Of a stretch of DNA of 64,000 nt, positions 11,100-55,200 are shown in pieces. The stretch covers positions 14,262,001-14,326,000 of the forward strand of contig NC_045696.1 of NCBI RefSeq assembly GCF_009834535.1, in the 5' to 3' direction. Both the position numbers and the translations under genes were made by a program. Origin of the DNA: Camelus ferus (Eukaryota). The notes under the pieces were generated by a model. The model had not been told where the DNA came from. It made no database searches and worked only from the letters and a program-made list of their open reading frames with translations. Within the stretch, counting starts at the first letter, position 1. Each line of letters begins with the position of its first letter.

Positions 11100-11290
11100 T
11101 AATTAGTGTTTTTTATAACGACTTTTCAAAAATGACCCAACTCCCTCAGAAAATTAACTATCACACGATTGGCCACACTGCACCCTGCCTGAAGCATTTT
11201 AAATAATATTTCTGTAAAAATATAGTCTCTAGCAATACATCCCAGGGCTTGGCTTCATAGCATATTTTGAAGATCAATAATCATGAACAT
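11100..11290. repeat. Locus-specific low-copy non-coding element, copy 1 (candidate enhancer)
   Basis: tcagaaaattaactatcacacgattggcc...ccctgcctgaagcatttt...aaaatatagt...gcatattttgaagatca aligns by eye to 45378-45560. Confidence 0.7.
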
Positions 11291-11929
11291 CTATTGAAAT
11301 TACAAGAACCTAGTTGAGGAAAGCCTGTGTATTTAGTAAAGAGAAACTAGATTTCTGCATTCCAAGATTGTCACAGGATTGCTGTGTAAGAGTAAAGTCA
11401 GTCTCTATACGGAAGTATGGCCATATTGCAGTTGACAATTTCAGAAGAAATGAGTAATGTGTCATTGTACAGGGGCGCCTCCTGATTCATGAGGTCATAC
11501 TCTAAAAGTTCTATGAGAATCACACTAATAGAACATGCACTTTTCCCCTCTTTCCACTACATGTCAATTCAATCTGATTTAAAATGTAGTCTGATCCAAA
11601 TGCCCACACAGCTAGGCAGTATTCTCTACCTGTACAATACTTTATTTGTTGAAAAGAGTTCCTTTTCAGATGTCTATATCTGAACCCTAAAACCATTTGG
11701 TGAGACCAGCAGATTATGAATTACGATGTCATTTAACAAAGGCTGCGGCTCAGGACGCTTGGGCTCCAAATCAAAATCAAGTTTTCTTGGTCTCACATAC
11801 AATCTATATAGTATTCTTCAGAGAAGAGAGGGAAGAAAGAATGTCTATTATTTTATTTTGTCTTACTGCATCATGATACCAATTGATTTCATTTTCTTGT
11901 ATACCTATTATTTTATACCTATTGTTGAA

Positions 11930-13110
11930 AAGGGGTAGTGAAGGAGGACATTCTTGCCTTCTTCCTGATCTTAGCAGGAAACCTAGTTTTCACCATTAAG
12001 CAAGATGTTAGCTGTAGCTTTTTGTGGGTATTCTTTATCAAGCTGAGGAAATTCCCCTCTATTCCTGTTTACTGAGACTTTTTATCATGAGTGGGTGATA
12101 GACTTTGTCAAATGCTTTTTCTTCATCTATTGATAGGATCACATGGTTTTTCTTCTTCAGGCTGTTGATGTGATGGATTACATTAATTGATTTTTTTTAA
12201 TGTTGAACCAAGCCATGCATTATTGGGACAAATCCCTGTTGATCATGCTGTATAGTTATTTTTTCATATGGTGTTGGATTCAATTTTCTAATATTTTGTT
12301 GAAAATTTTAGCGTTTGTGTTTATTTAAGATATTGGTCTGTAGTTTTCCTTATTTGTAATACCTTTGTCTGGTTTTCATATTAGGGTAATGCTGGCCTCA
12401 TAGAATGAGTCAGAGAGTATTCCCTCTGCTACTATCTTCTGAAAGTAATTACAGAGAATTGGTATTACTTATTCCATAAGTGTTTTGTAGAATATATCAG
12501 TGAATGCATTTAGATTTGGTGCTTTCTGTTTTGGAAGGTTATTAATTATTGATTCAAACTCTTTAATAGATACAGTTCCATTAAGATTGTCTATTTCTTC
12601 TTGCATGAGTTTTGGCAGACCATGTGATTTCTTATAGCAAGTCAAGTTTATTAATGATTGTTAGAACCGTCTATAATTGTTTATTAATTTTTATTTAGTT
12701 GTTTAGATGTCTGTTTAGTTTTTTTGACTTCTGTCTGTCTCCTTCATTAAATATGCCCTCTGTGAATACACAGATAGCCATTCTTATTCAGTGTTACATT
12801 AGAGCCCACCAAAAAGATCTAAATGGCAGAGATGTGCCATGTTCATCGATTAGAAAACTCAATATTGTTATGAAGTCCATTGCTCCCAAAATTTATCTGC
12901 AAATTCAACTCAATCTCAGTTAAAATCTCAGGAGGATATATTTGTAGTTGTTGACAAGCTGATTTTAACAATTAGATGAAAAACAAAATAATTAGATCAG
13001 ACAAAATAATCTTGAAAAAAAAACAAAGTAGGAAGTCTCACATTACCTAACACCAAGATCTACTACAACTGTGTAGTGAACAAAACCGTGTGGTATTAGT
13101 GGAATTATGG
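11930..13110. mobile_element. L1 ORF2 fragments (antisense ~11930-12615, sense ~12795-13110)
   Basis: Antisense ttcttgccttcttcctgatcttag...gctggcctcatagaatgagt; sense part translates as DLNGRDVPCSSIRKLNIVMKSIAPK, a decayed ORF2 motif (WRDIPCSWIGRLNIVKM). Confidence 0.8.
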
Positions 13111-13570
13111 GCACTGAATAAACTGTGGATAAAGAATGTAAATGACCCTAAGGCTGAGGTAGTGGAGTAGCTGCCCAACTTTTCAGGGAGGCCACAAATA
13201 CCAACATCAGTAACGATTCTGGCCCAAAAGACGCAATTACTTGCAGGAACAAATGACATTTGTTTATTGAAAAAAAATGCAATTTCTTCCAACTTTGGAG
13301 TACTTATGCTCATGGACAATACAAAACCATAGAATAGAATAACCAAGAATTCATATTTTGGACATAATCAGACTCAGATCTTCTGTCTTCAGGTAACAAT
13401 GAGAGCATTCATAATTTCTCAATAACAAACAGCTTCTTTGAAGTAAACACAGGTGGTATCGAGCCCTTACTTGAATGTAGGAGATTACAAAATGAAGCAT
13501 CCTTTGGGAGAAAAGTGTTAAACTTTAAATATTATTTCAGAGGCATAGTGTATTCTAGGATGTTTTTCTG

Positions 13571-13729
13571 TCAGCAAGAGGAATAGCATCTTCTGTAGAA
13601 AAGTGGTCGGTAGATACAGCAGCCACAGCCAGACCCATAGCCACAACCAGAGCCACAGCCATATCTACAACCACAGCCAGAGCTCTATCCACACCCCCCA
13701 TAGGAGTTCCTGTAATAGTTGCAACACAT
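13571..13729 (-). pseudogene. KRTAP21-2-like pseudogene
   Basis: Reads MCCNYYRNSYGGCG*SSGCGCRYGCGSGCGYGSGCGCCIYRPLFYRRCYSSC*. TAG at codon 15 (13685-13687). TATA mutated to TATGCAAAG; AATAAA at 13263-13268. Confidence 0.88.
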
Positions 13730-14959
13730 GATGGCAGAGGGTGAGGTTTCAGGTGAGATGCAGAACACTTCTGAAGTTTAAATGTCACCTACTACTCTGG
13801 AACCTTTGCATACTGACAGGAAGTCCAGGGCATACCATCAATTTTATGATTCGTGCAATAAATATTTACTTAATACCCAGTGTTTGCAAGTCACTCCTGT
13901 CAGTTGATAATGAGAGCACTTGGTCTTTTCATAGCTACAGCATCTGTCATAAATAAACCCATTATTTCAGAGTCTCCAGTTTTACTGGGGAATCATGTTT
14001 GCTTTTTGTCACCCAAGCATTGTTTTGAGCCAATTACAAAACTATAAAGTTTTCATCAATTACCCAATCACCTGAACACGTGATTCCAAAGATATATTTC
14101 ATGTAACAAGGCTCTGTGGAAGGCAGGGAAGTTAATGTTTGGGCATGCAACTATTAAAATGAACTTGACTAATTACATTGAGTAGGTTACTAATTATCAA
14201 TTACATTGTAAGATATTTCATTGGAACACAATTCTGCTCTATACAGAAACTCCTCAACATTTTAGCTTATAGAGTTCCTATGAACCCAAACACTTGTGAA
14301 TGTAACTTTCTGATAATATTTTTTTTTATCCCAAGAGCCATTTTTCAATAAATTTTTATCAACTCCAGGTGGTCATTTAGTTCAAACCAGAGCAACAAAT
14401 ACAAAAAAGATCCTTTGCAATGACACTTTTGAATGTTTTCTAAATCACGAATTTCCTTCAGACAATTTTAATCTATTGGGTCCCAGTGAAAATGGGAAAG
14501 TGGTAGGTAACTTGTAATAAGGAAACCGGGTACAAAGAGGTTTGGAAAGTTATTAAAAGTCCACAGCTAATTCATTGCCAAGACTGAGTATTTGTTCTTC
14601 TTTATTATGCTACATGGTTTTCCTTTCCAATCACTGGAGACCTGAACACTTGCTGTAACTAGTTTATTGTGGTGACTCATTTAATTTTTTTGTGAAATTA
14701 CTCTTTTGTAAAATCCCCACATACTTCAGAATCTTTCATGATTCTCAATGTCACTTTGGATACTAATTAAAATGTACTTCAGTGTTTTGTTCACAAGCCC
14801 TTCCCATCGAGTAAGGCGGATAGTTCCTCTCAACCTTTCATTTTCACTCCGAAGTGATCTACCCTTGATATCCATTGGTGTGACTGGTCTCCTAGGCTCC
14901 GCTGATATGCTGGTATGATATCCACACAATTGGCCAGATAATTTAGAGAACAGTAGAGG

Positions 14960-16965: not shown

Positions 16966-17898
16966 GTGGGTGATCCTACCTGGGTTTAGAGATTTCTTCC
17001 TCTTTATTTCCCAAAGGTCATTGAGCACCTAATGAAGAAGTCATTCTTGTTTCAGATGGTGTCACATATTAGAAAGAGCTTTTGTGTTGAGAAATTTGTG
17101 TGTCATTATCATCCTTTCACTTCACCCTATTTAGTGTCTCTAGAAAGAACCAGAGCATGTCTCCAATACTAATCTTACTAGTTTTGCAATACCAGACTTT
17201 CAGGTACATAACTGTATACACCACGCTGAATTCCCCACAATTCCAAGTGTTAAGAAGAAATATATCTTTTTTCAAAATTATCTTCTCTAGGTTTCTCTTT
17301 CTTCTCCTTCATTGTTGATGTGTAAGATCTTACAGGCTCGAACTTTATAAGTTTCCTGATGCTGTTCTGTTTCCTTTCATTATTTATGCTACCACCCATA
17401 TCCAGGGGCTTTTACCAGTCTCCAGGTCATGTATATACCTAACTATTTAGCCTTCTGCCTCTCCTCTTCCAATGCATCTTTTTTCACCATTAGCATTTTC
17501 GAAAACAGATTTTTCTGAGGCACTTGTCTGTGCGTGTATATGTGTGTGAATGTGATGATGAGTACATAAGTGCTGATCAGTGTGGAAAGAAAGAAATGAA
17601 TAGACCTAGGGTCATGAAACACAAATGTTTAAGAACAAACCTTGAGTAAAATGAGTTAAGAACACAAGACTCAAAGAAGAGCCTTTTTTTTTTCAGGGAA
17701 ATTCAAGATACATAACATGCTGTATGTCATGCATACTGACCAACCAGAACGGAAGCCAGACATACACAATCATAATGAACAGCTGTGCATTATCTCTGCC
17801 AGTCTCTAAGGAAGGCACAGAAATTGGAGTCAAAAATATAAACCAACAGCATGGCTGACACAAAAGACACATAAACTTGTTAGGACCAGTGAAACATG

Positions 17899-17904
17899 TT
17901 TATT
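17899..17904 (-). terminator. Polyadenylation signal AATAAA of the 43-aa KRTAP
   Basis: tttatt on the + strand, ~255 bp 3' of the stop; similar spacing in the paralogs. Confidence 0.6.
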
Positions 17905-18158
17905 TGGAAATAATCACAATATAGAAACAAAATAAGAAGGTAGTGGGTTTACACTTGAACTAGGTACAAAATGAAGTTTTCTGCCTTCCAGGAGCATTTT
18001 GGAGTAACTCAGGCTCCTTTAATTAGAAATAGGACTTTCTAGAAGGCAATCAGGCTGTGACTTCTCTATTTGATGAGAAATGATGTGATTTTTGAGGCAC
18101 TGAAATGGAAAAAGGTTGAAATAATTATTTTAGAGGAGAAGTGCACTGCAGTTACATT

Positions 18159-18290
18159 CTAGCAGCGAGAAGAATAGTATCTTCTACAGAAAAATGGTTG
18201 GTAACCACCGCAGACATAACCACAGCCACAGCCATATCCAGAGCCATAGCCACAGCTACCACGGTAGTTTCTGTAATAGTCACAACACAT
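18159..18290 (-). CDS. Short intact KRTAP21-2-like keratin-associated protein (43 aa), not in the ORF track
   Basis: Manual translation MCCDYYRNYRGSCGYGSGYGCGCGYVCGGYQPFFCRRYYSSRC-TAG; ACACC-ATG Kozak context; intact TATA and AATAAA. Confidence 0.75.
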   Translation of the reverse strand: MCCDYYRNYRGSCGYGSGYGCGCGYVCGGYQPFFCRRYYSSRC

Positions 18291-18377
18291 GGTGTTTTAC
18301 AGGCGGGAGTTCAGGAGTTCTACAGAGGAGCAGATGGAGGTTTCTGAAGTCTGAATGTCATCTTCTGCTCTGAGACC

Positions 18378-18383
18378 TTTATA
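18378..18383 (-). promoter_or_regulatory. TATA box
   Basis: AGTATATAAAGGTC on the minus strand, same context as the four intact paralogs, ~90 bp upstream of the ATG. Confidence 0.8.
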
Positions 18384-20552
18384 TACTACCAGAAGTGGGT
18401 GGAGCATGTAACACAGACTCTGTGGATTCATTATCACAGCAATTTTTATTTCTAAAAAGCTTATCACACTAAGGACAACAGTTTTGGGGGATAGTTATGC
18501 CCTAGCTAGTCATGAAAATGGTAAGGAAACAGATGTAACCTTCACACTGAACAAGTATGTCTTGTGGAATGTAATCAAACCAAATTTAGATTTTTCACCT
18601 CAGAGGGCGTTAACTCTTCTGCAACTTCTAGTCCCATATATGCGGGAGATGCTGCAGCATCTTATATCTCAGCATCACTGACAGGAAAACACCAGGGCTG
18701 GAGAAGAAAGGCAAACAGGAGGGGCATTAGGTGAGGAATTCTCAGGTTATACCTACAAAAAAGTGGATGGAACCAGGTAGAGTGGCCACTAAAGTGGTGG
18801 CTGAAGCAAAGGTCAGATGAGGCAAAGAAGATCTGAATTAGTGCAAAGCAGAGATTTGATATAATATGCCAAAATAAAAACAGCCATGATTTTGTCCAAT
18901 GCAACATAACCCACTCTAATTAACAGTTCTTGGAAATTTTCAGTATTGCTTTCTTAGATACATTTTGCCCACTTTAAATAAAATCATCAAAATTGTATCT
19001 GCTCAAATCCTACTTGAATTTTCAAAGCACAGCTTAGGCTACACCTCATATAAGAAGCATTCCTGGGCATTCACAACATACATTAGCCTTAATTTCCATA
19101 GCTCCCTGCGTCTAAATCTAAATCTATTGTGATACTGCATGTTATATTAGCATGTTCGATTTTAATTACCTGATTCCCGCAGTCAACTGTAATTTAATGC
19201 AAATAACTTTGTCTTTATTTTCTGTGAATCTAAAGAACTAAGCACTCAGAAACTGTTGAATGAGTGCCTATAAATTTTTTTCCTCTTGTAAAAATTGTTT
19301 TTATTTTGATGTATAGGTTGTTATATAGGGAAATAATAATAATAACAATTAATAATGTTTTTATTTCCCTTTATAGCTTTGAGGCACACTCACACTTATT
19401 ACTTCGTTTAATTCTTACAAAAACAATGTAAAATGGGAAGCTGTGGTATTTATTTTTAAATGCATAGATGAAAAAACAGAGGCCAAGGATAATTAAGTCT
19501 TGCCCAAGTCTCTCAGCTTTCAGTAGTAGAGCTGAATTGGTCCAAATCCTGTTATAACCATAAAAGTTAAGGAAGAACCCATGAATTATTTTTTCTTAGT
19601 TTTTAAGATGGAAAATATTCACTTTGAGTAAAATTATCAATATTTTGCAATTTCTGCCTTATGTTTCTACCCTCTAAATTTTCTTTGTCATCTTTGCCAT
19701 TCTAGCTAAAGTGTGCTTTGAACCATCAAGAAAACAACTCAGTCCCCTCTCAGACCTGCCCCATAACTCTAAGTACCACACAGCGGCATTATGGCGGCTC
19801 TAATCATGCAAATGCATTCTCTATTGAGAATACAATCTTCTTAATACTGCAAGTTAATCTCAGAAATTATAGAATTTCTAAAAATTTTTTAAATTTTAAG
19901 AATTTTAGAAATTTTGAGTGGAAATGATTATAACTTTTCTAGACATTCCAAATTTTAATCAATATAGGGTATGTATTAGCACTCTAGATCAGCAACTTCC
20001 ATGTCAAAATAAAAACGTCAGATTCTAGGTGTACTTCCTAATTATGATTGTCCTGCTTTTGCAGTTCTTTCCACTAAAATATATTCAAATTGGCTCCATT
20101 TCTGCAAACTCTGTGACCCTTTCTACATTTCATATTTCACATGCTTTCTCCCATAATAGCTCTAGCCTGACCATGTTTATTTGCATCCTTTCATTAACTG
20201 CCCTACTAGACAGTGACTGAACAATTTAACTTTAAACAAAATTTTGAGTACCTACATCATGTAAGCAATATTCCAAGGCATAGAATTAAATAAAATTACA
20301 TATCAAGAGCCCAAGAATGAGCTCTGTGGTTTAGAAACTCTCCAGAGAGAGTGAAACACCTTTTTCATTGGACCAGTCTCCATCCTTTCACCACATGCTA
20401 CAGGAAAGATTATTTTCAATCTTTATATTTCCTCACTCATTCACTCTTCAATTTGTTGCAATCAATATTTACTGTTAACACCCCCCCCACAAAAAAGCTC
20501 TCTTCATGAAAAATCTCATATCATTTGCCAAATTCAATGGAAACTTCTCAAG

Positions 20553-20710
20553 TAATTAATACAATAGGATGATAAAGTAAAAAGCAAGACCAACTTATCA
20601 GAAAACAAGCCACTTCACTAAAACCAGTAATTTGTACTAATAATACAGTGACAAACGTATCAATGTATTTGGTGTCATAGTGCATGTTAAGAGTTCATAA
20701 CTATGGAATA
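20553..20710. repeat. Locus-specific low-copy non-coding element, copy 2
   Basis: taattaata...gataaag...caagaccaac...gtaatttgtactaataatacagtg...taagagttcataact aligns by eye to 50731-50910. Confidence 0.6.
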
Positions 20711-20959
20711 TATGTATGATAGATGTACAAAACATCTAACAGGAGAGTGCCTATGAATTTTACATGAGAAAATTGAAACTATTGATTTTCCTGGATTTTC
20801 AAAATATCGTCAATACTAATAAGAAAAATATATAGGATTGAGCCACATAAAATTGTCATTTTTATAAATTAAGATGTTAAGTGTCACCAGTTTTTCCATA
20901 ATAAGCAGCATAATGATAAATATAATGACAAAAATCCACTGAGTTCGCAGAGTGGCATA

Positions 20960-22242: not shown

Positions 22243-23677
22243 TTGAGACAATCTGAAGATTCCTCTATGGGTGTAGCCATTGAGTATAATTTTTCCAACA
22301 GCAGTTACTACTCTGGTAATAAGCTGCCAGTTTATTTGCTTGTTTTTCTAAATTCCCCTCGAATTCTATTTTCCATCTTATATAACTGACCAATTTCAAC
22401 TCATCCTTTACAGCTCTGCTCATATACCATTCTCCTTCGGAAGAAATTCGTGACCCTTGTCTGACCTTCTCTTCCCACATTCTAGCTGACTAAGTCAAAC
22501 CACTGTTTCTTCATCATTTGGAGAAGTTGGAGAAACTCTGTCTTGAGAATAACCTCATCCCAGGGCTGACCTTAATGGCAGGGCCATCTTCCTTGGTTTG
22601 GGCGATTTGTGGGGTCTCCCAGCTCCAGGGATCTCGGGGTCACATATTGTGCAGTAACCCAGGTCATGCAAATGAGATGGCAACACCTTTATTACTGCTG
22701 ATGAAACTTGATGCCTACTGAGTCTGAAAAGGGTTTTCTGTTGTAACATTTAAATGTTAGAGTTCAGGAAGGTCAGATGAGAAAAAAATACGAAAGTCAG
22801 AACACAAAAAAGTAATAAGCTCTCCAATTCAGGAAGCAGACCGGGTTTTTTTTTTTTAATCCCGTTCTTATATCTGCCCCAATTAAGGCATTAGAGAACT
22901 TTACTAAGCAGTGGAACTTACTCTTTCCCAACTGAAAAATGTAGCACTACCATACTCAAAACTGAATGGACTTGTCTGACAGAATTTACCTTAATTATTT
23001 GTACTATATTTTTTATCTTCATGCACTAGAATGTAAACCCTGTAAGAGCAGGGAACTTGTCTATAATTTTCCTACTGTGTCTTCAGTGTCCAGGATGGGA
23101 CCCGTTCAGAAGTACTCAAAACTACTTGTCAGTTAAGTGACTTGAATCAATTTCCTCAATTTCAATAAATACATGCAAATATATTTGCAGTTTCATCAAA
23201 AGCAGATGATACAATAGAATGTTTTTATTCTTCCCTTAGTTCTTTATTCCTCCTGTACTTAACACCTCTCCTTCTAATTTCTCATTAATTCTGCAAAGAA
23301 TCTCTTCCATTCCATTATTCCTCTAAGCACTCAGGTCACCTCTTCTCTACCTTGAACTTTGCATGAATTTCCTGAGCAAGTGTCATTCATACCCTTCTTT
23401 CGCCTCCAACTCCATCCTAGACACAGTGCAATTCACAAAAAAAACAGTTCTGAAATACTGTGTGATTTGTGCTCAGTGCCTGAGCATGTGGGATAAGAGA
23501 AATAGATGGAGAAGATGTTGTTGCTTATACAGGGATAAGAATAAATGCTTGTAATACTCCAAGGAAGAACTTGAGGTTCAGGCAACATGTTACCCAATAC
23601 TCAAGAGAGGCCATAACATCTAAAACAAATGAAAAATGCACAAACACACAAACATTTGTTAGAAAGAACGAACCATT

Positions 23678-23683
23678 TTTATT
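23678..23683 (-). terminator. Polyadenylation signal AATAAA (unit A)
   Basis: catttttattgagaataag context conserved in all four units. Confidence 0.7.
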
Positions 23684-23973
23684 GAGAATAAGTTATTTCC
23701 CCAACTTTAAGATGTTAGGATCATCAGTACAGATAGAGAATCATCAATATATAATAGACAATGAGAGATTAAGAGAACACTTGGAAATTAGTCAGATGAT
23801 ACCATGGAGCCTCAGGCTACAAAGATGCCAATCTAAAACCAGGTAATTGGAGGTCAAACCTTCTGTCAGGCATGTAATTTCTTGGATGTAGCAATCATGG
23901 GTTATAGATTCTTGAATCAGCATTATCTATAAATGTGCCACTTCAGAGCAAATGGGGCTTGGATAGTGATGTT

Positions 23974-24348
23974 CTAACAGCAAGAAGAATAACACATCCT
24001 ATAGCAAACTGGCCTGTAGCTGCAGTAGCCAAAGCCAGAGCCGTATCCACAGCCATATCCAGTTCCGTAACCACAGCCATAGCGGGAGCCATATCCATGG
24101 CCGTATCCACAGCCATATCCGGTACCATAACCACACCCATAGCGGGAGCCATATCCACAGCCGTAACCACAGCCATATCCACAGCCATATCCGGTTCCGT
24201 AACCACAGCCATAGCGGGAGCCATATCCACAGCCGTATCCACAGCCATATCTGGTACCATAACCACAGCCATAATAGGGGCTAAATCCACAGCCATAGCT
24301 GTTTCCACAGCCATAGCCACAGGAGTTGCCATAGTAGTTGCAACACAT
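23974..24348 (-). CDS. KRTAP21-1: Keratin-associated protein 21-1-like, 124 aa (unit A)
   Basis: Single-exon [16 protein letters not shown]...(YGCG)n...[18 protein letters not shown]; Gly/Tyr/Cys-rich; termini resemble KRTAP21-1 as recalled; TATA and polyA signal present. Confidence 0.92.
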
Positions 24349-24428
24349 GTTGTCAAGGGATGTGAATTCAGGTGGGTTGAAAGAGGAGGTTTCTCAAATG
24401 GGTGTGTGTCTTCCTATTCCCTGGGACC

Positions 24429-24434
24429 TTTATA
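24429..24434 (-). promoter_or_regulatory. TATA box (unit A)
   Basis: AGTATATAAAGGTCCC, ~80 bp upstream of the ATG. Confidence 0.85.
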
Positions 24435-24845
24435 TACTGTCAGTAATTAACAGAGCATACCATTCATTTCCTGACGTAACCAACAAATATGTAAGCAACC
24501 ATCATGTGCCAGTCACGGTTGACTATCAATAATGCCTTGTTTAAATAGCTCATTATTTTGGAGACTCCAGATTTATTTAAAGAGCACCATTTTAATTGGT
24601 TCTGCCGAAGAATTGCCTCAATAGAATCATTTGCCCCAAAACCGATATCCATTTTTCAAAACCTCCTTATATATGTCTTATTTAAAAGATTTGGGGGGGA
24701 TGTGGAAAAAATTTGCCCCCTTTTCTCTTTTGTATTTCCTAAATCATCTGTCTCTGTCCATAAGAAAAGAAATTTTCCTTTCTCCTTTCTTAAATCATTT
24801 CAACTTCTTGCCAGGCTTCTCCCACCCAGATACCCACTATGCCAT

Positions 24846-24966: not shown

Positions 24967-25184
24967 TATAAATAAGCTTCTCAATCAATAGATGTCTAAA
25001 TCCAAACATAACCTGTCTTCTCCCTCTGAACAAACACTTGACCTTTCCATCACCAAACATGTAGTCAAAAAAGAGTAGTTGTTTTGTTTGTTTGATAGAG
25101 GAGATTTTTTGCTTATCTTACATGTATGGGTTTTATTTATATCACCATGTTCAGAGTAAAGCAGACTCTAAAATTTAAGTTATT

Positions 25185-42588: not shown

Positions 42589-42606
42589 TAGATAGATGGA
42601 TGGATG

Positions 42607-42669
<63 letters not shown>

Positions 42670-42670
42670 G
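42589..42670. repeat. (GATG)n(GATA)n tetranucleotide microsatellite
   Basis: Long, near-perfect GATA run visible directly. Confidence 0.97.
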
Positions 42671-43943
42671 CAGGTATAGACCTCATCCATGTATTTCCTC
42701 AATTGCAAAATTTCATGTGCAACACAACTCAGACTCCCTGCAAAGTATCCTTCTGATATACTAAAAGTGACTTAAAAAAGCAAAGAATCTGTGGGAAAAA
42801 TATACTTTTCAATGAAGTTGAACTTTGCATTCCAATCACTAAAGAATTACAAAGTTTATCCACACTCATAAAACAGGAAAGATTAGCGTTTGGAATCACT
42901 TATCAGAACTCCTCAGACTTATTATGACTGATTTGCCTTGCAATGATCCAGGTGGTTTATAATAGTGGGGAAGTGATCGTAAGGACCCTTGCTCTAAGTT
43001 CTTGATATTTCAGAAAAGCCATAATAGAAAAAAGCTTAGTAGAAAATGAGGTGCTAAGTAGAACTGAGCATCATATCTTGGCCTGACTTTTCCCTCTCAC
43101 CTTGATTTGTCCACAGGTTACACTATTGACAAACAACTCTTTATGTAGTAAGGTCCTGCTGGAATCAAATAAATGGGAAAATTCCTGATCTATTGCTTTT
43201 TTTTTTTTTTTTTGGCACTTGCATTTATATAACCATCTTGGAAAGACTTAACACTTAAACTCTATGAACTTCCATTTAAGACAATATTTTAAACTCTAAA
43301 GATGACTGGTTCTTGAAATAAACTTAGAAAGGAATTCCACACCTTTCCCATGGGATGTGGAGGGGTATGGACACAATGTCTGTGCCCTCAGTGCCCTGGT
43401 CTCTGTAATAAATATCCCCTCCCAGCTTTCTCATGTCACAGGGAGCCTGTAGCCCTAAAATCTACCCCTAGAGATCTCATACCACATTTAATCCAAAGAA
43501 GGAGACCACAGAGCCATTTTCCTGCATCCTCTCTTCCAATGAAAATATATTGAATTTTCACTGAAGCTACTCATAATACACGATTTTTCTAATTAGGTTT
43601 TCCCATCTCCACATATGTTTTTTAAGATATAATAAGCACTTACACATATTTGGTGGTGGTTTTGCTTGCTATGTATTCCTTGAACAACTCAGCTGACTTC
43701 CACAGACACTAATCAGCCACACGCTACAAATAAGGTGCTATCCTGGGAAATGGAAGCTTGCCAAGACAGATCACATATAATGCTTGCCCCAGGATCAAGC
43801 ATCTACAAACATAATGGGGCTCCCCAAAAGGAGATCTAGTGTTCTCAGGGTCACTCTACCTTTCAACCATCTATTCTCTAGGGTTCATCTTCTTTCCACA
43901 CTACAAGAAGAATAGAAACAATGAAGCTATTGACACTTCTAGT

Positions 43944-44169
43944 CAGTAGATCTAAACCAGGATGATTTTGCCCTCTTGGACTCTTGGAGACAGTTGACAA
44001 TAGCTGGAGACATTTTCAAATTGTCAAGACTTGGAAGTGGGGAGATACTACTACTGTCATCTAGTGGTAGAAATCAGGATGTGGCTAATTCTGCACAACA
44101 TAGAACAGCCTCAACGACAAGGAAACATCTAGTCCAAAATGTCAGTAGTGCTGAGGTCTGGAAACCTTG
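43944..44169 (+). mobile_element. Full-length MER20 (hAT-Charlie)
   Basis: cagtagatctaaacc..gatgattttgccc...ctggagacatttt...catctagtggtagaaatcaggatg...caaaatgtcagtagtgctgagg..gaaaccttg. Confidence 0.85.
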
Positions 44170-45377
44170 GTTTACAGCTCTGCATCTATAAATAAGCATC
44201 TCTAAGTCTATAAATCCAAACGTACCCTTTCTCCTCACTCTATACCAAACGTCCAACCTTTCCATGACCACACATGCAGTCCAAAAAAAAGGTGTTGCTT
44301 TGCTTGCTTGCTTGTTTGTTTTTGCTTATCTTACTTTCTAGGTTTGATTTAAATCACCATTTTCAAAATCAGGTAGACTCTAAAATTTAAATTATTTTTT
44401 ACTGTAACAACCACAATCCAAGGTGGAAGGGAGTCTAAATTCAAGATCACTCTCTCAACTGGATACTCGAATTTCAACAGCAAAGGAATGCGGCGATCAA
44501 GCGCTTCATGGAATACCTTCAACAGTGATTTTCACAAAGCTGCTGATTTCAGTTCTTGAGAACTTTCATTATTAGATAATTTTCCTTTAGTTGAGAAATC
44601 TTTCTACTTATTTTTTTTCCTGATACTGATCACTGGTCTATTCTGATCACTGTTACGCTTCACCCTTAACCATGAACATAAAGAAAATAAATTCCCATGT
44701 CAATTTTTCTTTTTCTTTAGTTTCTTACCTTTTCTCTCCTCATTGAAATTCAAAATTATAAATTCTACTTCACAGATTCTCTGGAATAGACTCTTTCTTT
44801 TCAATGCCATTGCCAACACACTCTTTATGGTCATAATACCCCTGGATTATTGAAAACATCTTTTGTCTTTATTGCATTATTTCTAATATCTTTCAAGTCT
44901 CTGGACACTCATTTATAACAACAGAAACCACCTCTATTCTGTGCATCCCTGAATAACCAGCCCTGAGTACAGTACTTGACACATAATTTGAATTCAATAT
45001 CTCTCCATGAAAAAAATGGATGGATCAAGTCAAACATATGTTCAAACATTGGTGTGCTACTTATAAGCTATAAGAAACTTGATTATATGCTTAAGTTGCC
45101 GGAACACCAGTTTCTTCTTTCTAAAATGTGGTGTAAGTATTTTTACGTAATTGTTTTTCATGTTTCATGCCTGTTCGGTACTCTGGGGCAGGAATTTTGC
45201 TTAATAAATGTTATTCCCTTTATCTCATTTTTCTTACACCATAGTTTTAAATTCTTGTCTATTGAATATTTCCAAATACCCATATTTATTTGTACTGAAA
45301 TGATGATTTTGTCTGAATTTGATGTAATAGCTTTGTAACTTAAAAGAGGTTATTCAACCATATGCATATATATGCCC

Positions 45378-45620
45378 TAATTAAAAACATTTTTATGATG
45401 AGGAAGCAAAACCTTTCAGAAAATAAATTACCCTCCTAGTGGCCTTTTTGTGCCCTGACAGAGCCATTTTGTATAGTAATTTATTAACCAAAATATAGTG
45501 TCAACATTAAGTCACTGGGTGTGAGATCATGCATATTTTTAAGTTCAGCAATTAAAAGGTGACTTTATGCTGCATTTATACAGCATATGACTTGGGAACA
45601 TGTTTAGGTTTATATTATGT
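45378..45620. repeat. Locus-specific low-copy non-coding element, copy 3
   Basis: 22-bp identity cattttgtatagtaatttatta (45465-45486) with 50820-50841; tagtggcctt (45437-45446) shared with 55088-55097. Confidence 0.8.
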
Positions 45621-48002
45621 CAAAAGTATATCTGATTTTTTTGAAACTCCACAAAAGTCAAAAGATCAGTTCATAGTAAAAAAAGTATTTTATTTTTCAG
45701 GACTCTGTTTGATAGCTTGGATTAAGTGTTATCTTGAAGAAAGACATTTTAGTCAATACCAAAGATTTACTAAACAGTAAATTTTCAATATCCATGTGAA
45801 ATATGTTCTAGAATTTCCCATAATTAGAAATGTGCATAAATTTCCCCCTTATATTTTTTCTAGCTTCCAGTCAAAAATCTTCTAGTCTAAACTCTCATTA
45901 ACAACAAAAATATTCCTTCTAACCAGTCCATCTACATTCTATGTTGTAAAGTGCCTTTATGCACATTATCTCAATTCATTCTCACAACTTTGTAAAATGA
46001 ACAGAGTGAGTACTTGACAAACAAGTGTTTGGAGAAAGAAGCTGAGGCTCAGAGTGATTAAGTCACTAGCCTGAAGTCACACAGCAGATGAGTATCAGAG
46101 CCAAGTCTTCTTAGTCTTCTGCTGGTGGGCTCATTGGCATGTGCTCCTTCTGGCCAGGCCCTCTCTTGCTCATGGGAGAGAGATGCACTGATCTCTAGCT
46201 ACTCTTATGAGAGTACGGAAGCCTGAGAATTCCTTTCCAGATATAGATGGTGATTACACTTCCCCAGAAGTGATCATAAATGTGCACAAAGACTGATTAT
46301 CCCACTTCCCTATCTGATGGCCAATTCCTACTCATGCCTCAGGCCTCAACTCACGTGCCCCTCTTCTCAGAACTCTTTACTGACTCTCACAGTGCTAAAT
46401 AACACTCCGTATTTTATAACTTTCATAGCATATTACTATAAAAACAATTACTTCATTCTATTTTTAGTCTTATTATGTTACTTCTACAGGAGATTATGAA
46501 TTCACTGAGAACTGGACCCATTTGGATAGATAGACAGACACAGACATACATACATACATGGGTAAATAGATACATAGATAAATTGTCCACAGCATCTACC
46601 ATAGCACAAGCCTTTCCTCTCTTTCCTTAGCCTTTAAATTGGGTAACAACACCTTCCTACACCACAGAGTATCCAGAAGACCTGTGCTGATTCTATTTAA
46701 AGACAGAATGATTGAAATTCACACCTGCCATGGTGTTCTTCCTATTTTTCTACATACTTTGCAGTGTGACAAGCTGACTCTCCCTTTCATCCACACTCCC
46801 TACTCCTGCCAGAAATACAGAAGACAAAAATCAGAGTGAGAGAAAGAATATCCCCCTTTACTTTCTTGTTTCTGGAGTACCAACATCATTTTCCCTGCCA
46901 GTCAGGCTCAATATTCCTCAGTCATTCTTGATGAACAGTTCACAGAATTTCAGGGCCAGATGTCCACTCAGCCACCACTTATCCTGGAATTCTCACTTTG
47001 GTGATCTTGGTTGCATTGCCTGTGATCACGTGGCTTCCATTACGTGCATTCCCATGGAATAGCCAATTCAGCTCTTGAGCCATAGTTATTGGAAAGATAT
47101 ATTTAGAAATCATTTTCCCTGTAGCTATTACCTATTGGTCTCAATTGTGATTTCTGGGACATAGGAAACAAATCCAATTCGCCTATCAGATTATAAATCT
47201 TTAAATATGTTTTGATAGCTCATGTCACTTCTTTCCTCACAAGTCTAGAAATTTTACGGGTACATTTCCACTAAATTTCTCTTTCTTGGACATCTCTTCT
47301 ATCTTCCCTCTCATCGTGTCCAGAAAGCAGAGATTTACCCTATAGATGGGTTCAGAAGTCTATCACTTCTTTCCCTTTATACGTGTCTATACTCAATTCA
47401 GGTCCACACCACTTCTTCCCTGAATTCTCCTAGACTCATATTTCTTCCTCTTCCAATCCATTCTGTACGACAATACTGGTTTCATTCCCCATAAATGTTA
47501 ATTCTTATTTCTGTGCATGTGCATATACAAGTGTGTGTGTTTATTATTTTAGGTGTGAATAATCATTAAACACTAAATTGTTGAAGAAACATGTTTGAGA
47601 AATGTTTGGCTAAACCAGTGAAGTCACAGGGAAGCACAAAAAGTAAAAAAATAAAAAATTGTTAAACAAGGAAGTTGCAAAACCCGTAGTCGTTGATGAT
47701 TTAACGTAAGATTGATGACACAGAGCTGACAGACTCAAAGAAAGCATTTCATTGGGAAACTGATTTGCCCCAGTGTGGAGCACTAAGGCTCACAGCCAAG
47801 GACACAGCAAAGAAAGAAACCATGAGAGATGTAAGAGTTAAATTTCATAAAACAAATGGAATTTTGTCTTCTTTCTTCCATTGGTATCAAAGCCCATCTA
47901 TGGAAAAAACATTTAAAAGGAATAAAAGTAGTCGATGACTGCTCCTTGGAACAGATTTCCACTTGCCACTTCAGCAGCAAAGGATGCTCTGGTACTGATA
48001 TG

Positions 48003-48214
48003 CCAACAGCAAGAGAAATAGCACCTCCTCTAGCAAAATGAATGGTAGCCATGGCAACCACAGCTGGAACAAGAGCTTGACGCTTATGGACACAACCATA
48101 GCCAGAGCCAGAGCCACACCCCAGGGTCCAGGAGTGCCTTCATCCCTGGACTTAGCCCGTGTCAGCGCTGCATCTACACACTCCATGGAAATTCCCACAG
48201 CGGGAGCAACTCAC
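48003..48214 (-). pseudogene. Degenerate high Gly-Tyr KRTAP (KRTAP21-like) pseudogene
   Basis: GTG replaces ATG (xSCSRCGNFHGVCRC); internal stops; GCGSGSGYGC; a frameshift; then SCGCHGYHSFC*RRCYFSCC with the stop changed to TGG. TATA decayed to TGTAAAAG. Confidence 0.82.
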
Positions 48215-49498
48215 GGGGATTAGGAGGTGAAAGTGTCGATGTAAGGTGTGTGTGGAGAGTGAGGGGGGCTGCAAATCTGAGTGTTACCCACAATCTCAGA
48301 CTTTTACATGCAATCAGAGGTGGGTAGGAAACACTGAGTCAACCTGCTCAGTGACATAACGATTTGCTTCAAGTGAGCTCATTTTACTAGGTCTGCAAAT
48401 TTGTTAGGAAGTCTCCTTAATTTGTTTTTACCCAGGGTTTTCTGTAGTTAATAATAAGCCTGGAATAACATTGATTCCTTTTCCTTCACCTCAACTCTCC
48501 TGAAAACATATCTCATGTGACTCATAACCTTACAAAGACCAAAATCAGTGTTTTGTCTTCTAATTAAACTCCATGGCCTTGAAATCACGTGTGTGTGTGT
48601 ATATATGTTGTGAAGGTTTGTGTATATGATTATTCTTGTTAGACAAGGCAAGGCTAGTATTATTATTATCATTATCTTCATTTTATAGAAAACAATACTA
48701 TGCGATGCTGAAATTTTCAAAAATTAAGTGACTTGGCCAGAATCACACAGCTGTGTAAGGCTGGTGATGTAACTTAGACATTTGACTCCAAATTATATAT
48801 ACATTACATCTGACTTCCAAAAAAGGCAGAATTTAATAAATGAGCTTTCATTAAAAACAACAAAATGCCAATATTTACATTTTGCAAATTGTCAATCGCC
48901 ATGCTTCGCTTTTTTATATTAATAGAGCATGTCTTACATTTCATTTGACCTCAGTAGCCTTGTATAAACCAAGTGCAATTGGATCATTTTAACTATGTTT
49001 CTGTGAGTTCTGAGTACCCCTTCAAGAACAAAGTACCATTATTACCTGCTTCTCCAGGCATACAACTCCAGCCTTTGTTCCTTGAGGTCAGAATTGCCTA
49101 CTATTCTTCCTCCTGAAAGAAGAGGTAGGTAAAGACAGGTTTAAGTCTGTTTGTAAGTGCTTTAAATCTGGATCCAGACCTGTGTAATAGTATAACATTA
49201 ATCATGATCACATAAAATTAAGCCATAAAGTAAAAGTCACCTTGAGGCTCAGATGTCCATCATCATTGCCTATGCCCATCCTACCCCTAAAAAAAGTCCC
49301 CAGTACACATGCAGTCCTCCAAAATTCCATGATTCCACCCACATAGCCAAAAGCTTCCCTGCCATCTCTCCAGACGAGTTCAGAATGCTGATATTTACTT
49401 GCACAAGTTTAATTGGATTCTTCGCTAGGTAGTCACCAAACAGAGCAATTCAATTTATCCAACATGTACTGAGTGCACGCCAATTTATGAGCTACAGT

Positions 49499-50150
49499 CA
49501 GGGCCAGCTGCACGAGTGTGCAGCCACTGCATGTGCACAAGGGCCAGTCCTCAGAAGGGGCCCTACACTTGGTGTTAAAGTCTCCACAGTCACCAGCTTT
49601 AAATTCTTAACACATTTGTCTTTGAATTTGTGGTTTGTAAGTGGAGTCTGCGGGGATGATGGAACATGTGCTGAGTATATGCAATGTTAGGGGGGAAGGT
49701 GTAGCTCAGTGGCAGAGTACATGCTTAGCATGCAAAAGGTCCTGGGTTCAATCCCCAGTATCTCTATTTTTAAAAAAAGTTTAAAAAAAAACTGAGTATA
49801 TGCAGTGTTATCTCACATGCATTCCCACCTCTTATCACTTTCCTGCCTCCCCAGAATAAGTCTTCAATTTCCCACTTCCCAATCCCTGTCCAGTGACCTC
49901 TGCTACCTTCTACCCTGATGGGAACCTGAGCACCAGCATGGGAAGGGTTGGAATCCAGTGTGGGTCTAGACTCACTCAACAGGCATCCTCATGCCCAAAA
50001 GCACCTGACATTAGATAGCAAGCAAAAAGCACCATGGCATGCCAAAAGAGACCACAGAATACTGGAAAAAGACCTTCTTCTTGCCTTTTAAACAAAGGGT
50101 ATCACATTTTTTGTTTACACTGGACCCTGCAGATTATGTAGCTGGCCCTC
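49499..50150 (+). mobile_element. MER45-family hAT-Tip100 element inserted in an L2 fragment
   Basis: TIRs cagggccagct / agctggccctc; ctcagaaggggccc and aaattcttaa internal motifs; 8-bp TSD gctacagt/ggcacagt (6/8 match). Confidence 0.75.
49690..49791 (+). mobile_element. tRNA-Ala-derived SINE, vic-1-like (camelid)
   Basis: A box gtagctcagtgg, B box ggttcaatccc, A-rich tail; 19-bp TSD ctgagtatatgcaRtgtta at 49671-49689 and 49792-49810. Confidence 0.85.
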
Positions 50151-50730
50151 GGCACAGTGCCAAGGATTGGGAGGATGTAAGTAGGAAGAGCATGTGTTCT
50201 CAGACCTTCAAAATTCCATCAATATTTTAAGAATTAAAATAAAGCAATGAAACATTAAAAAAAAATTTCAGAATTAGTACTTGACCCTATAAGTGGTCCA
50301 GTGCTCACTCTACCTCACTGCTTCCCTTCACCATCAGACTTCTTCTAAGAGTCAGCTACACCCAGGGTGTGGCCTTCTTCGTACTCAGTGGTCTCCCAAG
50401 TCATTGCAATTTACATTCCGTCCCCGTCAGATGTCTACAGCTACTCTTAATAAGTCACCAAGTATGGCCTTGTTGCCTGGTTACCGAACAGACCTCAGCA
50501 TTGTTTAATCTCCCTGGACCATATAACAACATACACCTCCAACTCCCTATTGAATTTTAACTCCTTACCTCATAATCTTTCCGTCAAAACGCACAAGTCC
50601 CCCCAAAACACAACTGGTCAAATATCTATATTTGCTGGTGACATCTCTACTGATCTTGCCATAAAATATTCTAAAATATATTCCTAAGTTGATCTACAGT
50701 AAAGTCTGATTATTCTGTTGTAAATAGGTC

Positions 50731-50970
50731 TTAATTAATATTTTGATAAAGAATGAAACAACCAAGGCCAAACACTCAAATAACAAACTAGCCTTAGGAA
50801 TTTTACAGGTTGCCTGGAACATTTTGTATAGTAATTTATTACCAAAAATAAATGTTAAACACTATGTTACTAGGTATGGCATCATGCCATAGTTTAGAGT
50901 TCATCAACCTTAAAATAGCTGTTGCCTGCTAGATACTTGTGACCTAGGAACTGATTTATGTATAGTATAC
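50731..50970. repeat. Locus-specific low-copy non-coding element, copy 4
   Basis: ttgcctggaacattttgtatagtaatttattaccaaaaata...tttagagttcatcaac...gacctaggaac aligns to copies 1-3 and 5. Confidence 0.8.
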
Positions 50971-52537
50971 AGGAAGGGAAATACTATATTAATACTAAAT
51001 GCTCTCTTTTCCTGTGGCAACTCAGCAAATGCCATCAGTGCTAATTCAAGAAACTATGGAGTCATTCTCTCACATGAAGAAAAATTATCCTCTAACAGAA
51101 ATATCTATGCATGCTTAATAAATTAAACAGTGGCTTTAAAATTTTTAATATATGTATATTTGATCCCAGTAAAAATGATGTGAAAGAGGTAACACAGTTA
51201 TTTTAATTCCAGCTTTACAGAGAAAATAAAAATGAGACTGAAAAAGAATGGGTTTTCCTCATCCTCTCCCAGCTCCCAAGTGGCTACACAGCAGCTTTTA
51301 AATCCAGAACCCAATCTGTGTCCTACAAAGTGATTTCCTAGTCTCCTACTGAAGACTTGTCATAATAAAGAGATAACTGGTTCCCAAGGATACCCATTCC
51401 ATTGAGAAAGAGTTCCAAATTACCCCAGATTCTCTCATAATTCAACAATAAATAGTCCCAATGTACTTAGGGTCCCTGGTGGAAATACCATTATCTACAC
51501 TGGGCTCCTCTCAGACTCACTTTGCCTAATGTGGTCTCTCTCTGATCCCAGTTCCCAGATGACACGATGGGTCCCACTGACTGCTGCAGATAAGCTGATA
51601 TGACATCTTCTCGCCAGGCCTTCCAAGATGCCCAGACTCTAAGAATATTTGCAGCAGAAACCTAGGATTGCTTCTCCTAATCTGGCTTTTCCAGTAAAAG
51701 CCAGACCTCTTTCAGTAAGATGACACCTTATTGATTCCTTCTCCCTTCTTTGGCCAACAAGGTCATTTCCCCAGTCATCTGTATGATTACCTCCCCTCCA
51801 TCCTTCAGCTATCAATGTGAGTGTCTTGATCTTCTCACTCTCCATCATGTCTGGTTTTGCTGCCTCTCTTTTTTGATTTTTCTAAAATATCTCATGTGTA
51901 ACTATAAGACCAATTATGTCATCTGTATCATAAACTGAATCACTGAAAAAAAATAGATAGATATTTCCATCTTGGTTAATTTCACACCACCAGCACGAGG
52001 TCGCTGATGTGGAGTTGGGAAGAGAAGCACACAGTCGCCCTCACAAGCTGGTACAGGCTGGCTTCAGCACAATTCCGCAGGAGAGGCCTCGTGTGGCACT
52101 TGAAAAACACGGATTCTGGCTTCGAATTCTGGCTCTTCCACTCACTAGCTCTTGAGTCTTGGGCAATTCACTGAATTTTTCTGTGCCTCAATTCCCTCGT
52201 CTATAAAATGAGTATATGAAATGATACTATCTATGTCTTAAAGTTGTTGAGAAAATCCGAGTAAATATCTTTAAATCACCTAGAATAATACCAGGTCTCT
52301 AACAAGTGCTACTTAAGAGGTTGTATTTTTGATATAAAATGGCATGCGTGATCTCATTATTTCCCCAATACACCAGAGTGTGAATGCCTTGGAGTTTAGA
52401 ACTTAATCTTTTACCATTAAATTCACAGCCCCTAGTGAAGTCCAATACATCATACTTCATGAATGTTTATAATTCGGAATCTAAAATACAGAGTGGCCCA
52501 TAAAAGGTGAATTTTTGTCTTTCTTCAAAGCATCTAT

Positions 52538-52561
52538 ACACACACACACACACACACACAC
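52538..52561. repeat. (CA)n microsatellite
   Basis: Directly visible. Confidence 0.9.
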
Positions 52562-53759
52562 GCTCACATTTTATCTGCCCCTTACTTTGGATCTCAAAAT
52601 TAGTCAATGCTGAAAGACATTTCTCCATGATGAGCTGAGGTTTCTAAAACTATCTAATACTATTTGATCTCACCGTCCATTACAGAAACTTGTAGAAAAT
52701 CATATTATTTTTCTGTTTCTATATCCCCCATTCTTCTTCTTCTGAAGCCTTTATATTTCAATGATGCTCTTTGCTTGTAGAATCTCCAAGTATTGCAGTA
52801 ATAAGAGAGTTGAGAGGACAATTAGCTCTGCCTCTCCTCCGGATGCTAAATTCCATCCACAACATGTCCACAAATTAGCAACTTGAACTGGCTTAAAATC
52901 TTCAGACCTAGGGGAGCCAGGCATAGTGCCAATCTACTTTTCAGAAGGGACTAATTTTTAGAGGAATTTCTTATGTCGAGAAGTCTAACTCCTTGAATTT
53001 TCCACTGACTTCTAATAATTATGGCCTCTTGAGTTAGAAAAAGCAAATAAAATGCAGTCATTTAATACTCTTCAAACATCGAACACCACAGACAGTATTT
53101 CCTGCCCTCATTTCTATCATTTTAAATACTATGAAAGCAAGCTTCTTTTTCCTAATGAGGAATCACCCATTTTTTCACTTTTAAATGCTAGTATTCAACA
53201 CATCTGATAATTTAGTACTAAATTATTTCCTTATATTTCCCATATATCATTTTTCTATTTATTTTTATCTTTATGGAACTAATAATGGTTTGTTTTGCAA
53301 GCACACCACTGTGACTAGCTCACAATCCTATTGTACATCTTCTCTGAGGCACAGAATATCATTGTCACTGCTGTTCTTTTCTAAAAGTTGTATTTTGTTA
53401 GTTTATAGAAAGAAAAGTGGAATCACTCCAGGAGTTCCCTTTTTTATATATAGTAAAGAAAAGTAGAGTATCAAAGATCAAAAATACTCATCCTAAAAAC
53501 AAACCCTCAAGTTCTCAGCTATTTGTAGGAAGTCTTTATTATTCAATCATGATTGGTAAACTTCAACAGCTTTTATCTATTAAAAAGGAGCCATCTTCCC
53601 TCCATTCTTCGTGAAGTCAAGCATTTTTCTGCATTTGCTTCTCATATGTCTTCTCTCTCAAGTCATTTTATAATGTGAGTATTTGTAATTAATTACATGA
53701 CTGTCTTAATAAGCAACAGCTCTTTTAAACACAGGCAACATATAAGACGTCATGCCATG

Positions 53760-54740
53760 GCCAGTAGAATTCTAAGACAGCCCTTATGATTCCCACCCAC
53801 TGTCATCCAAGCTTGTTGTAATCCCCTCATCTTGATCATAGGCAGGACCTGTACCATCCTTCTATCCAGTAAAATACCATAAAAGTGATTGGACATCATT
53901 CCAAGGATTATGTTACCTCCCATGGCAAAAGTGAAAGGGAAAATGCCATATGATATCACTTATAGGTGGAATCTAAAAAAATAAAAAAAAAATAAGGACA
54001 CAATGAACTACTTATTATTTATAACTTAGATGATTGATTTCTTGAATATGTATAAGCACATTTGACTGTCCTTTATAATTGGATTACTGCATTCTGTTGA
54101 TTCTTATTTTGTAGTTGGCTTTATTCCTTTGATAACTATGTAAGTTTAAAAAGCTAAAGTTCTAATCTGTTCTTGGAAAAAAATGATCAGTATATATATA
54201 TAAATTTTTTAAAAGGATGTGCAGTATATTGTATACATATATTTACATGCAACATAATGCATATGTGCTGTCAAACTGTAATAATTCTACCTAACACAAC
54301 TGAAAAAGGAAAAATAAGAGTGAACGGATTTTGCTGATACAATTAAGGTCTGTAATCAGTTGGCTTTAAGTTAATCAAAAGGGAGATTATCCTGGATGTT
54401 ACTGACCATGTCAGGCTAGAACTCAAAAACAGCACATCCCCTCTCTCTCTCCTCCCCCTCCCCCATTGCTGATTTTAAAGAATCAAATTAAACAAATGAG
54501 TTCTATAGGATCAAGGAAATGAATTCTGCCCAAAACCCAAGGAAACAAAGTAACTTCTATTTCAGTCTCCAGTTAAGAATTCAGCCTGGCCAACAACATG
54601 GTTTTAGCCTTGGGAGACCCTGACTGGAGACCCAGTGAGGCTGTTTCCAGGCTCCTGACCTACTGGCAGATAATAAATGTATGCTGTTTTCAGCTACTAA
54701 GTTTGTGGTAATTTGTGGCACAGTTATAGGCAATGAATCC
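53760..54740 (+). mobile_element. MLT1E-like MaLR LTR interrupted by a ~390-bp insertion (53936-54324)
   Basis: agaattctaagac...gtaatcccctc...catggcaaaa | ggattttgctgatacaattaagg...gggagattatcctgg...ctaagtttgtggtaatttgt. Confidence 0.75.
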
Positions 54741-55079
54741 CGGAGGAGTTGCAAAATTGAAGACTATATATATTCTTCACTTTATGTTTTCAGAGAGCAT
54801 GTTTTGGAAGTTCCTCCTTTACCCTGCATCATCAATGACCATTAATCTCCCTCCTTCTCTTGACCATAATGCTTCTTGAAACAGTAACCTGTACTCATTT
54901 TGTTCAATTCTTTACTATTCATTCAGTCCCAAGTTAAGCAACCTGTATTCACTCTCACCACTCTGCTAAAGTATTCAGTATTTTCATGAAGAACACCATA
55001 ACCTCTTAATTATCAAACCTAAATGAAGTTTTGAAATAATTCCTTTATTATTTTATGTTCAATGATGGAAATACAAGCT

Positions 55080-55200
55080 CTTAATTTTAGTGGCCTTATT
55101 ACACTTTGCCTGAAGTGCTTAATATAACAATTTATTATCTAAAATTTAATAAAAGCAATCTGTATCAGATGATACTTTGGAGTTCAGTAACTAAGGGATG
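55080..55200. repeat. Locus-specific low-copy non-coding element, copy 5
   Basis: tagtggccttattacactttgcctgaag...caatttattatctaaaat...ttggagttcagtaact; tgcctgaag is shared with 11186-11194. Confidence 0.6.

Follow-up and report, generated by a model that had tools for sequence, protein, structure and literature searches.

The 64-kb stretch of the Camelus ferus genome analysed here (NCBI RefSeq assembly GCF_009834535.1, contig NC_045696.1, positions 14,262,001 to 14,326,000 of the forward strand; hereafter the window) carries nine glycine/tyrosine/cysteine-rich KRTAP loci (g1-g9), arranged head to tail and all on the minus strand, among which a diverged non-coding block of ~350-450 bp recurs. 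The copies of this block are homologous, restricted to the array and alike in orientation; they show no features of a transposon and are conserved at a level similar to that of neighbouring paralogous sequence. Judged from the sequence, the block is probably a paralogous piece of spacer from an ancestral unit of the array that now persists as a neutral relic. Its origin in an ancestral tandem-duplication unit, copied together with the genes, we consider very likely, and the copies as they now stand we take to be largely or entirely neutral instead of acting as regulatory modules. The block is thus of interest mainly for what it records of the array's duplication history, both the repeat unit of old and the place where a later amplification had its junction.

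Homology and extent of the copies

Four copies of the block are solid and a fifth is weak, as shuffle z values and profile E-values indicate. All lie on the plus strand, at 10938-11300 (c1), 20553-20753 (c2), 45200-45687 (c3), 50600-51056 (c4) and 54847-55234 (c5). Smith-Waterman scores of the ten pairs among the five copies were compared with 300 dinucleotide shuffles, and in six pairs no shuffle reached the observed score, with z values of 25.2 (c3-c4), 19.8 (c1-c3), 9.4 (c1-c4), 8.3 (c3-c5), 5.9 (c4-c5) and 4.3 (c2-c5). Three pairs were weaker, namely c2-c4 (z 3.9, 2/300 shuffles reaching the score), c1-c5 (z 2.7, 7/300) and c2-c3 (z 2.0, 18/300), and the pair c1-c2 was indistinguishable from its shuffles (z -0.1, 186/300). 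Smith-Waterman scores of the copies against reverse complements stayed at background (9-14). A preliminary description of the same DNA had set alignment scores no better than those of shuffled AT-rich controls as a ground for rejection; in the six leading pairs the similarity stands against the shuffles.

Window-wide nhmmer searches agree, with E-values of 9e-9 for c1-c3, 1.6e-8 for c1-c4 and 2.5e-11 for c3-c4. Plain BLAST of the window against itself detects c3-c4 as the sole pair, matching 45465-45557 to 50820-50915 (78% over 96 bp, E 3e-13); within this match lies the 22-bp identity between 45465-45486 and 50820-50841 that had been reported earlier and is confirmed here. A profile built from c1, c3 and c4 recovers c5 independently (E 3.7e-8 in 264 kb) and misses c2; when c5 is added to the profile, c2 (20627-20753) becomes the top match outside the training set, with an E-value of 0.0052 in 64 kb and 0.022 in 264 kb, the match ranked after it having an E-value of 2.3. 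Only the 3' half of c2 takes part. Global identities over the core are 48-65%, and those that involve c2 are 48-53%. On these scores c1, c3, c4 and c5 are judged to be truly homologous and c2 marginal, so that of the five recurrent copies in one orientation first described, four stand, all on the plus strand, and c2 is doubtful.

The copies are also longer than was first thought. The coordinates originally given do hold homologous sequence, but the true left edge lies ~100-150 bp further out: 10938-11045 matches 45200-45308 (z 7.7) and 10990-11088 matches 50600-50702 (z 9.7), while c4 and c5 alone share an extra block further left (50314-50418 with 54847-54950, z 9.2). There is no extension to the right, where tests of the tails alone give z of at most 1 and the tail of c3 has no match. 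The resulting copies, of ~350-450 bp, have ragged edges that differ from pair to pair, and the four solid copies were found to have no terminal repeats, direct or inverted, and no target-site duplications in common. An extent of 800 bp for the c1-c3 pair, suggested by an nhmmer alignment of 45267-46063 with 11004-11764, was dropped since its tail alone gives a z of 0.5 and the c3 tail is without match. A separate, weak similarity on the same strand (nhmmer E 5e-4, z 4.5) connects 51080-51635, just past c4, with 14403-14937, a stretch 300-800 bp above the promoter of g2; the old unit may have left this as well, or it may be an old repeat.

Position of the copies in the array

Because the array runs head to tail, each copy lies upstream of one locus and downstream of the next. 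Copy c1 is 0.8-1.2 kb upstream of the pseudogene g1 and ~2.3 kb downstream of the pseudogene g2; c2 is 2.3 kb upstream of the intact g3 and ~3.2 kb downstream of g4; c3 is 4.4 kb upstream of the intact g7 and ~2.3 kb downstream of the relic g8; and c4 is ~2.4 kb upstream of g8. The spacer between g8 and g9 holds two copies, the second of which, c5, is 6.9 kb upstream of g8 and 1.9 kb downstream of the pseudogene g9, with no gene relic found within 6.5 kb on its low-coordinate side. Overall, copies are 0.8-6.9 kb from the ATG of the lower gene and 1.9-3.3 kb from the 3' end of the upper one. The distances upstream of genes in the preliminary description are therefore correct, but the copies are equally downstream of the next locus, and two of the loci concerned, near 10.1 and 48.1 kb, are pseudogenes. 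Of the four solid copies, three, namely c1, c4 and c5, in fact lie upstream of a pseudogene or relic. By profile search, the g2-g3 spacer, the region upstream of g9 and the interior of the young tandem array g4-g7 are free of copies, and the genes g4-g6 of that array are intact and each without a copy of its own.

This last absence has a ready explanation in the layout of the young array. Two segments on the plus strand, block A (44104-44400) and block B (44388-45087), are common to the g7 spacer and the young units, and c3 begins ~110 bp past the end of block B, that is, beyond the last young unit. The junction of the later amplification thus appears to lie a little before the block, which would leave g4-g6 without copies of their own.

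Distribution in the genome

When the five copies were each run by BLAST against the 2.09-Gb assembly, the search, which is blind to copies under ~70% identity, returned only the query itself and the reciprocal match of c3 and c4. As controls from the same window, it returned 7330 first-look candidates for the repeat at 53929-54320, 6968 for that at 11923-12619 and 36 for a 70-bp fragment. A degenerate pattern of the core with 31 places has two exact matches in the 2.09 Gb, which are c4 and c5 themselves, and the 10 matches with one or two mismatches (against 2 for a reversed-pattern control) show no homology past the pattern itself. The tail of c1 is unique in the genome and that of c3 holds only the 70-bp dispersed fragment (46024-46105).

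More sensitive profile searches covered the window and its surroundings, 314 kb in all. The profile of c1, c3, c4 and c5 has no match with E<1 across the 200 kb downstream and a single weak one (E 0.0087) in the 50 kb upstream; hence no strong copy was found outside 11-55 kb in this range, and none by other KRTAP loci, which here comprise a KRTAP8-like open reading frame (ORF) 29 kb past the end of the window and two further KRTAP-like loci in the 50 kb preceding it. The weak upstream match (contig positions 14231496-14231566, plus strand, model positions 167-241) is ~30.5 kb before the window and far from both of these KRTAP-like loci. Hence the view that the block is not a recognisable transposon holds: BLAST and pattern searches show no dispersed copies, there are no terminal repeats or common sharp ends, and the genome-wide check for a dispersed repeat yields only c3 and c4 matching each other. 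A metagenome scan with the 22-mer matched two contigs (GC 25-29%) over 22-23 bases alone, and since similarity ends there and the contigs are AT-rich, these matches are attributed to chance.

Conservation of the block

The core of the block scores 0.18-0.19 bits per column between c3 and c1 (67% identity over 144 bp), 0.19-0.20 between c3 and c4 (66-68% over 176-178 bp), 0.09-0.10 between c1 and c4 (62-63%) and 0.09 between c3 and c5 (66% over 116 bp). For the promoters of the old paralogues the corresponding values are 0.11 for g7-g1 (63%) and 0.10 for g1-g8 (60%), the comparison of g7 with g8 giving no match. Identities accordingly range over 62-68% for the core against 58-69% for old-paralogue promoters, and the 3' flanks of the old paralogues are mostly without match to each other. 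Such parity of block and promoter is weak evidence of constraint, because in the young units, which give a direct reading of the neutral level, promoters (85-87% identical) have been kept no better than the whole units (82-89%). Within the block itself, all four solid copies agree in 49 of their 162 ungapped columns, never over more than 3 bp in a row (P 0.98), and these invariant columns are not significantly clustered (window-variance P 0.06).

We also simulated the decay of copies of a 3-kb unique stretch of the window, evolving independently by substitutions and small indels only. At a simulated identity of 63%, ~80% of the unit is still alignable. At ~60%, the best island reaches at least 27 bits in 20/36 pairs and a common island appears in 5/12 triples. 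At 57%, 13% of the unit aligns, with a median island of 11 bits, at least 27 bits in 5/36 pairs and a common island in 0/12 triples, and at 52% there is no alignment. The real copies, three or four of them, retain an island of 27-37 bits at a single place, and the remainder is undetectable. Under this model neutral decay to ~60% identity can produce such islands, and the simulation does not choose between neutral and selective readings.

Motifs, RNA structure and coding potential

Posterior-HOX motifs had been offered as an argument for regulatory function. The window is 64% A+T, and in its 64 kb TTTATTA occurs 37 times, TTWATNRR 157 times, TAATTA 92 times and RGTTCA 65 times; with TTTATTA and TTWATNRR so frequent, the argument is weak. 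A longer word, AATTTATTA, occurs four times in the window, once in each of c3, c4 and c5, where all three are on the plus strand, as homology alone predicts. A structured RNA was considered and rejected, no Rfam family being found over the copies and RNAalifold predicting 0 pairs; five of six single folds have z between -1.0 and +2.1, and one (c4, plus strand) has -2.55. No ORF covers any of the copies. In the literature we found neither a description of this element nor a paper on KRTAP intergenic enhancers.

Interpretation

The copies are paralogous, confined to the array and oriented with the tandem genes, and their common orientation implies that they were co-duplicated with the array, as the preliminary description had supposed. 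We propose that old tandem duplications, perhaps by unequal crossing-over, would have copied gene, promoter and spacer as one; that the copies then would have drifted to ~50-68% identity, the level of the same paralogues' promoters; and that the remainder of each spacer may have been lost, replaced or eroded past detection. A later amplification would have given rise to four genes, presumably KRTAP21-like, with its junction just short of the block, leaving c3 as a lone distal copy.

Several observations weigh against neutral drift from such a unit. Per column, the core scores somewhat above the promoters in two of the three comparable pairs, so that conservation no higher than in flanking paralogous sequence, which the preliminary description saw as fatal to an enhancer, is neither clearly the case nor clearly excluded. 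The perfect 22-bp run of c3 and c4 is unlikely under uniform decay (P 0.002) and may be a short conversion tract or the mark of a younger split. Gene islands and this block are the only segments still alignable among the old paralogues. In terms of the simulation, the observed pattern would fit less well if the true identity were the 63-68% of the core, because ~80% of the unit would then be predicted to align; the spacers would have to have turned over on a large scale, or the block to have changed more slowly. Turnover by transposons is not demonstrated, because only 11% of the window, a lower bound, could be traced to repeats and 2.8 kb of one spacer (41331-44104) is unique. Finally, the gene partner with which each copy was duplicated cannot be assigned.

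There is a different reading, in which the block is a distal cis-regulatory module (an enhancer or upstream promoter element) of an ancestral KRTAP20/21-type unit, kept by purifying selection, and c3, at the end of the array, is the shared enhancer of the four young genes, bound by hair-cortex factors that recognise AT-rich sites. Homeodomain factors of the hair cortex such as HOXC13 or DLX3 would be candidate binders. In its favour, the block is the sole spacer segment, gene islands aside, that aligns among the old paralogues, its core scores equal or exceed those of proximal promoters, and it is cluster-specific and not a transposon; the 22-bp run and the presence of AATTTATTA once in each of c3, c4 and c5 would also suit it, as would the position of c3 and c2 upstream of intact genes. 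It further draws on PMC4839604, in which 5.9 kb upstream of sheep KRTAP11-1 gives cortex-specific expression and KRTAP upstream regions of 1-6 kb are able to confer such expression in transgenic mice. Against this, identity among copies is only 48-68% and no invariant run in the four solid copies exceeds 3 bp (clustering P 0.06); c1, c4 and c5 adjoin pseudogenes or a relic; g4-g6 have no copy of their own, nor do other KRTAP loci in the 314 kb; neutral simulation yields similar islands; and HOX-type words are frequent throughout the AT-rich window. We therefore regard purifying selection on a distal module, for which parity with the promoters and the one 22-bp run are the sole positive evidence, as possible but unlikely, and the more specific proposal of a KRTAP20/21-specific distal enhancer that predates the eutherian radiation, with c3 shared by the young array and the copies beside pseudogenes either serving neighbouring genes too or recently orphaned, as more doubtful again. 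The selectively retained enhancer of the preliminary description is not upheld, given promoter-level conservation, pseudogene neighbours, the lack of copies at g4-g6 and the neutral origin open to such islands, and on the present comparisons the block should not be treated as an enhancer. The control of ordered KRTAP activation in the hair cortex is poorly understood, and a module shared by a subfamily, if true, would be a useful handle on it.

Two further explanations have less to commend them. The block might be a very old, low-copy interspersed repeat that was present in the ancestral spacer and co-duplicated, or that inserted repeatedly; it is indeed AT-rich and non-coding, and ancient repeats may evade BLAST. 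Yet no further genomic copy is obtained from any of the five queries, when BLAST did detect the old repeats of the window (6968 at ~75% identity, 7330 at ~87% and 36 for the 70-bp fragment), and the profile has zero matches with E<1 in the 200 kb downstream. The copies also have a single orientation, in keeping with that of the gene array, and lack sharp ends in common, terminal inverted repeats and target-site duplications, all of which makes a repeat quite improbable. Chance resemblance of AT-rich DNA can draw on c2, which is marginal (z -0.1 to 4.3, E 0.005-0.02, 48-53% identity, missed by the profile of c1, c3 and c4), and is refuted for c1, c3, c4 and c5, with E-values of 1e-8 to 1e-11, z up to 25 and the independent recovery of c5 at 3.7e-8; for the block as a whole it is scarcely credible. 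The relic of an ancestral unit, probably neutral, remains the reading that we prefer.

The KRTAP loci

All loci share a gene island that runs from ~400-650 bp below the coding sequence (CDS) to ~270-350 bp above the ATG, on the minus strand in every case. The lowest, g1, has its CDS at ~9985-10224 in an island (CDS, 3' flank and promoter) at 9571-10413; its C-terminus is conserved but in another frame, and it is a probable pseudogene. The KRTAP-like CDS of g2 (~13566-13730, island 13145-14121) has an in-frame stop at codon 15 and is a pseudogene. An intact, Cys/Gly/Tyr-rich ORF of 43 amino acids at 18159-18290 represents g3 (island 17789-18491), which has no Pfam match and whose homology is by DNA comparison only. 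Beyond the young array, g8 (~47964-48186, island 47361-48485) is a heavily decayed KRTAP relic without an ORF, and g9 (~57085-57350, island 57079-57588) is a KRTAP pseudogene with a frameshift and no start codon at the position usual in the family.

The young tandem array of g4-g7 (22968-41331) consists of ~5.5-kb units that are 82-89% identical along their full length. Its four ORFs are intact, at 23974-24348 (g4), 29047-29229 (g5), 35062-35304 (g6) and 40573-40827 (g7), the first three matching the Pfam KRTAP family PF11759 at or above its cut-off and g7 just under it. They encode 124, 60, 80 and 84 amino acids respectively, differing by gain or loss of 12-72-bp Gly-Tyr-Cys coding repeats for which Tandem Repeats Finder gives periods of 12, 24, 36, 60 and 72. 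The subfamily labels used here, KRTAP20/21-like in general and KRTAP21-like for g4-g7, are presumptive. Between the g7 promoter and block A, the 2.8 kb at 41331-44104 is single-copy in the genome, is matched by nothing in the three sister units and includes (TAGA)n at 42589-42669; either it was inserted here or the unit that went on to be amplified had lost it by deletion. KRTAP genes are tandemly arranged, and gene conversion is scarce in the high glycine-tyrosine class, according to PMC4180150.

Neighbouring repeats

Just beyond c1, an old dispersed repeat of ~700 bp on the plus strand (11923-12619, ~75% identity to its 6968 candidates) recurs at 27249-27747, 32200-32885 and 37316-37999. As block D it was tried as part of the array unit and rejected, because it is a dispersed repeat and only gives the c1 spacer and the young units the look of paralogues. 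Another dispersed repeat of ~390 bp at 53929-54320, whose 7330 candidates are 86-90% identical, is probably a short interspersed element (SINE), and pieces of it lie in the opposite orientation at 36418-36461 and 38965-39009.

The only Rfam match at gathering score in the window, outside the copies, is a tRNA-like sequence at 49695-49766 (RF00005, 40.8 bits). With related copies in the 200-kb flank (49687-49779, with a depth of up to 4 overlapping BLAST matches), it is less likely to be a tRNA gene than the head of a tRNA-derived SINE. A possible KRTAP relic below c4 at 49406-49738 (E 0.02) was dropped, as it has no KRTAP-like frame and abuts this SINE head. Fragments of a further old dispersed repeat, with 36 genome matches at 77-91%, occur at 46024-46105 and 19383-19535 and account for a non-collinear match between the flanks of c2 and c3.

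Comparison with known systems

Fossils of the MIR/L2 type resemble the block in being non-coding, a few hundred bp long and of low identity between copies; unlike them, it has no dispersed copies, although the true repeats of the window are readily detected. The variable exons of the protocadherins are each preceded by a conserved sequence element, which is short, hardly varies and is lacking at no member. Both cases involve a non-coding element duplicated along with members of a tandem family, but the block has no invariant run of more than 3 bp across its four solid copies and is absent from most members. Proximal promoters of hair keratin and KRTAP genes carry sites for HOXC13, LEF1 and similar factors. 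The block is like them in lying upstream of KRTAP loci (0.8-4.5 kb), in its AT-richness and in its TAATTA and TTTATTA words, whereas it is separate from the proximal promoter, which ends ~270-350 bp above the ATG, and the words are frequent in the window anyway.

Paralogous non-coding relics of tandem or segmental gene duplication, such as may be expected in KRTAP clusters with their tandem genes (PMC4180150), differ from the block in that the intervening spacer is here unalignable, leaving an island, and in that the gene partner of each copy is unassignable. They are like it in following the orientation of the genes, in being confined to the array, in diverging as far as the other paralogous non-coding parts, in having ragged edges specific to each pair, and in being missing where a duplication junction fell short.

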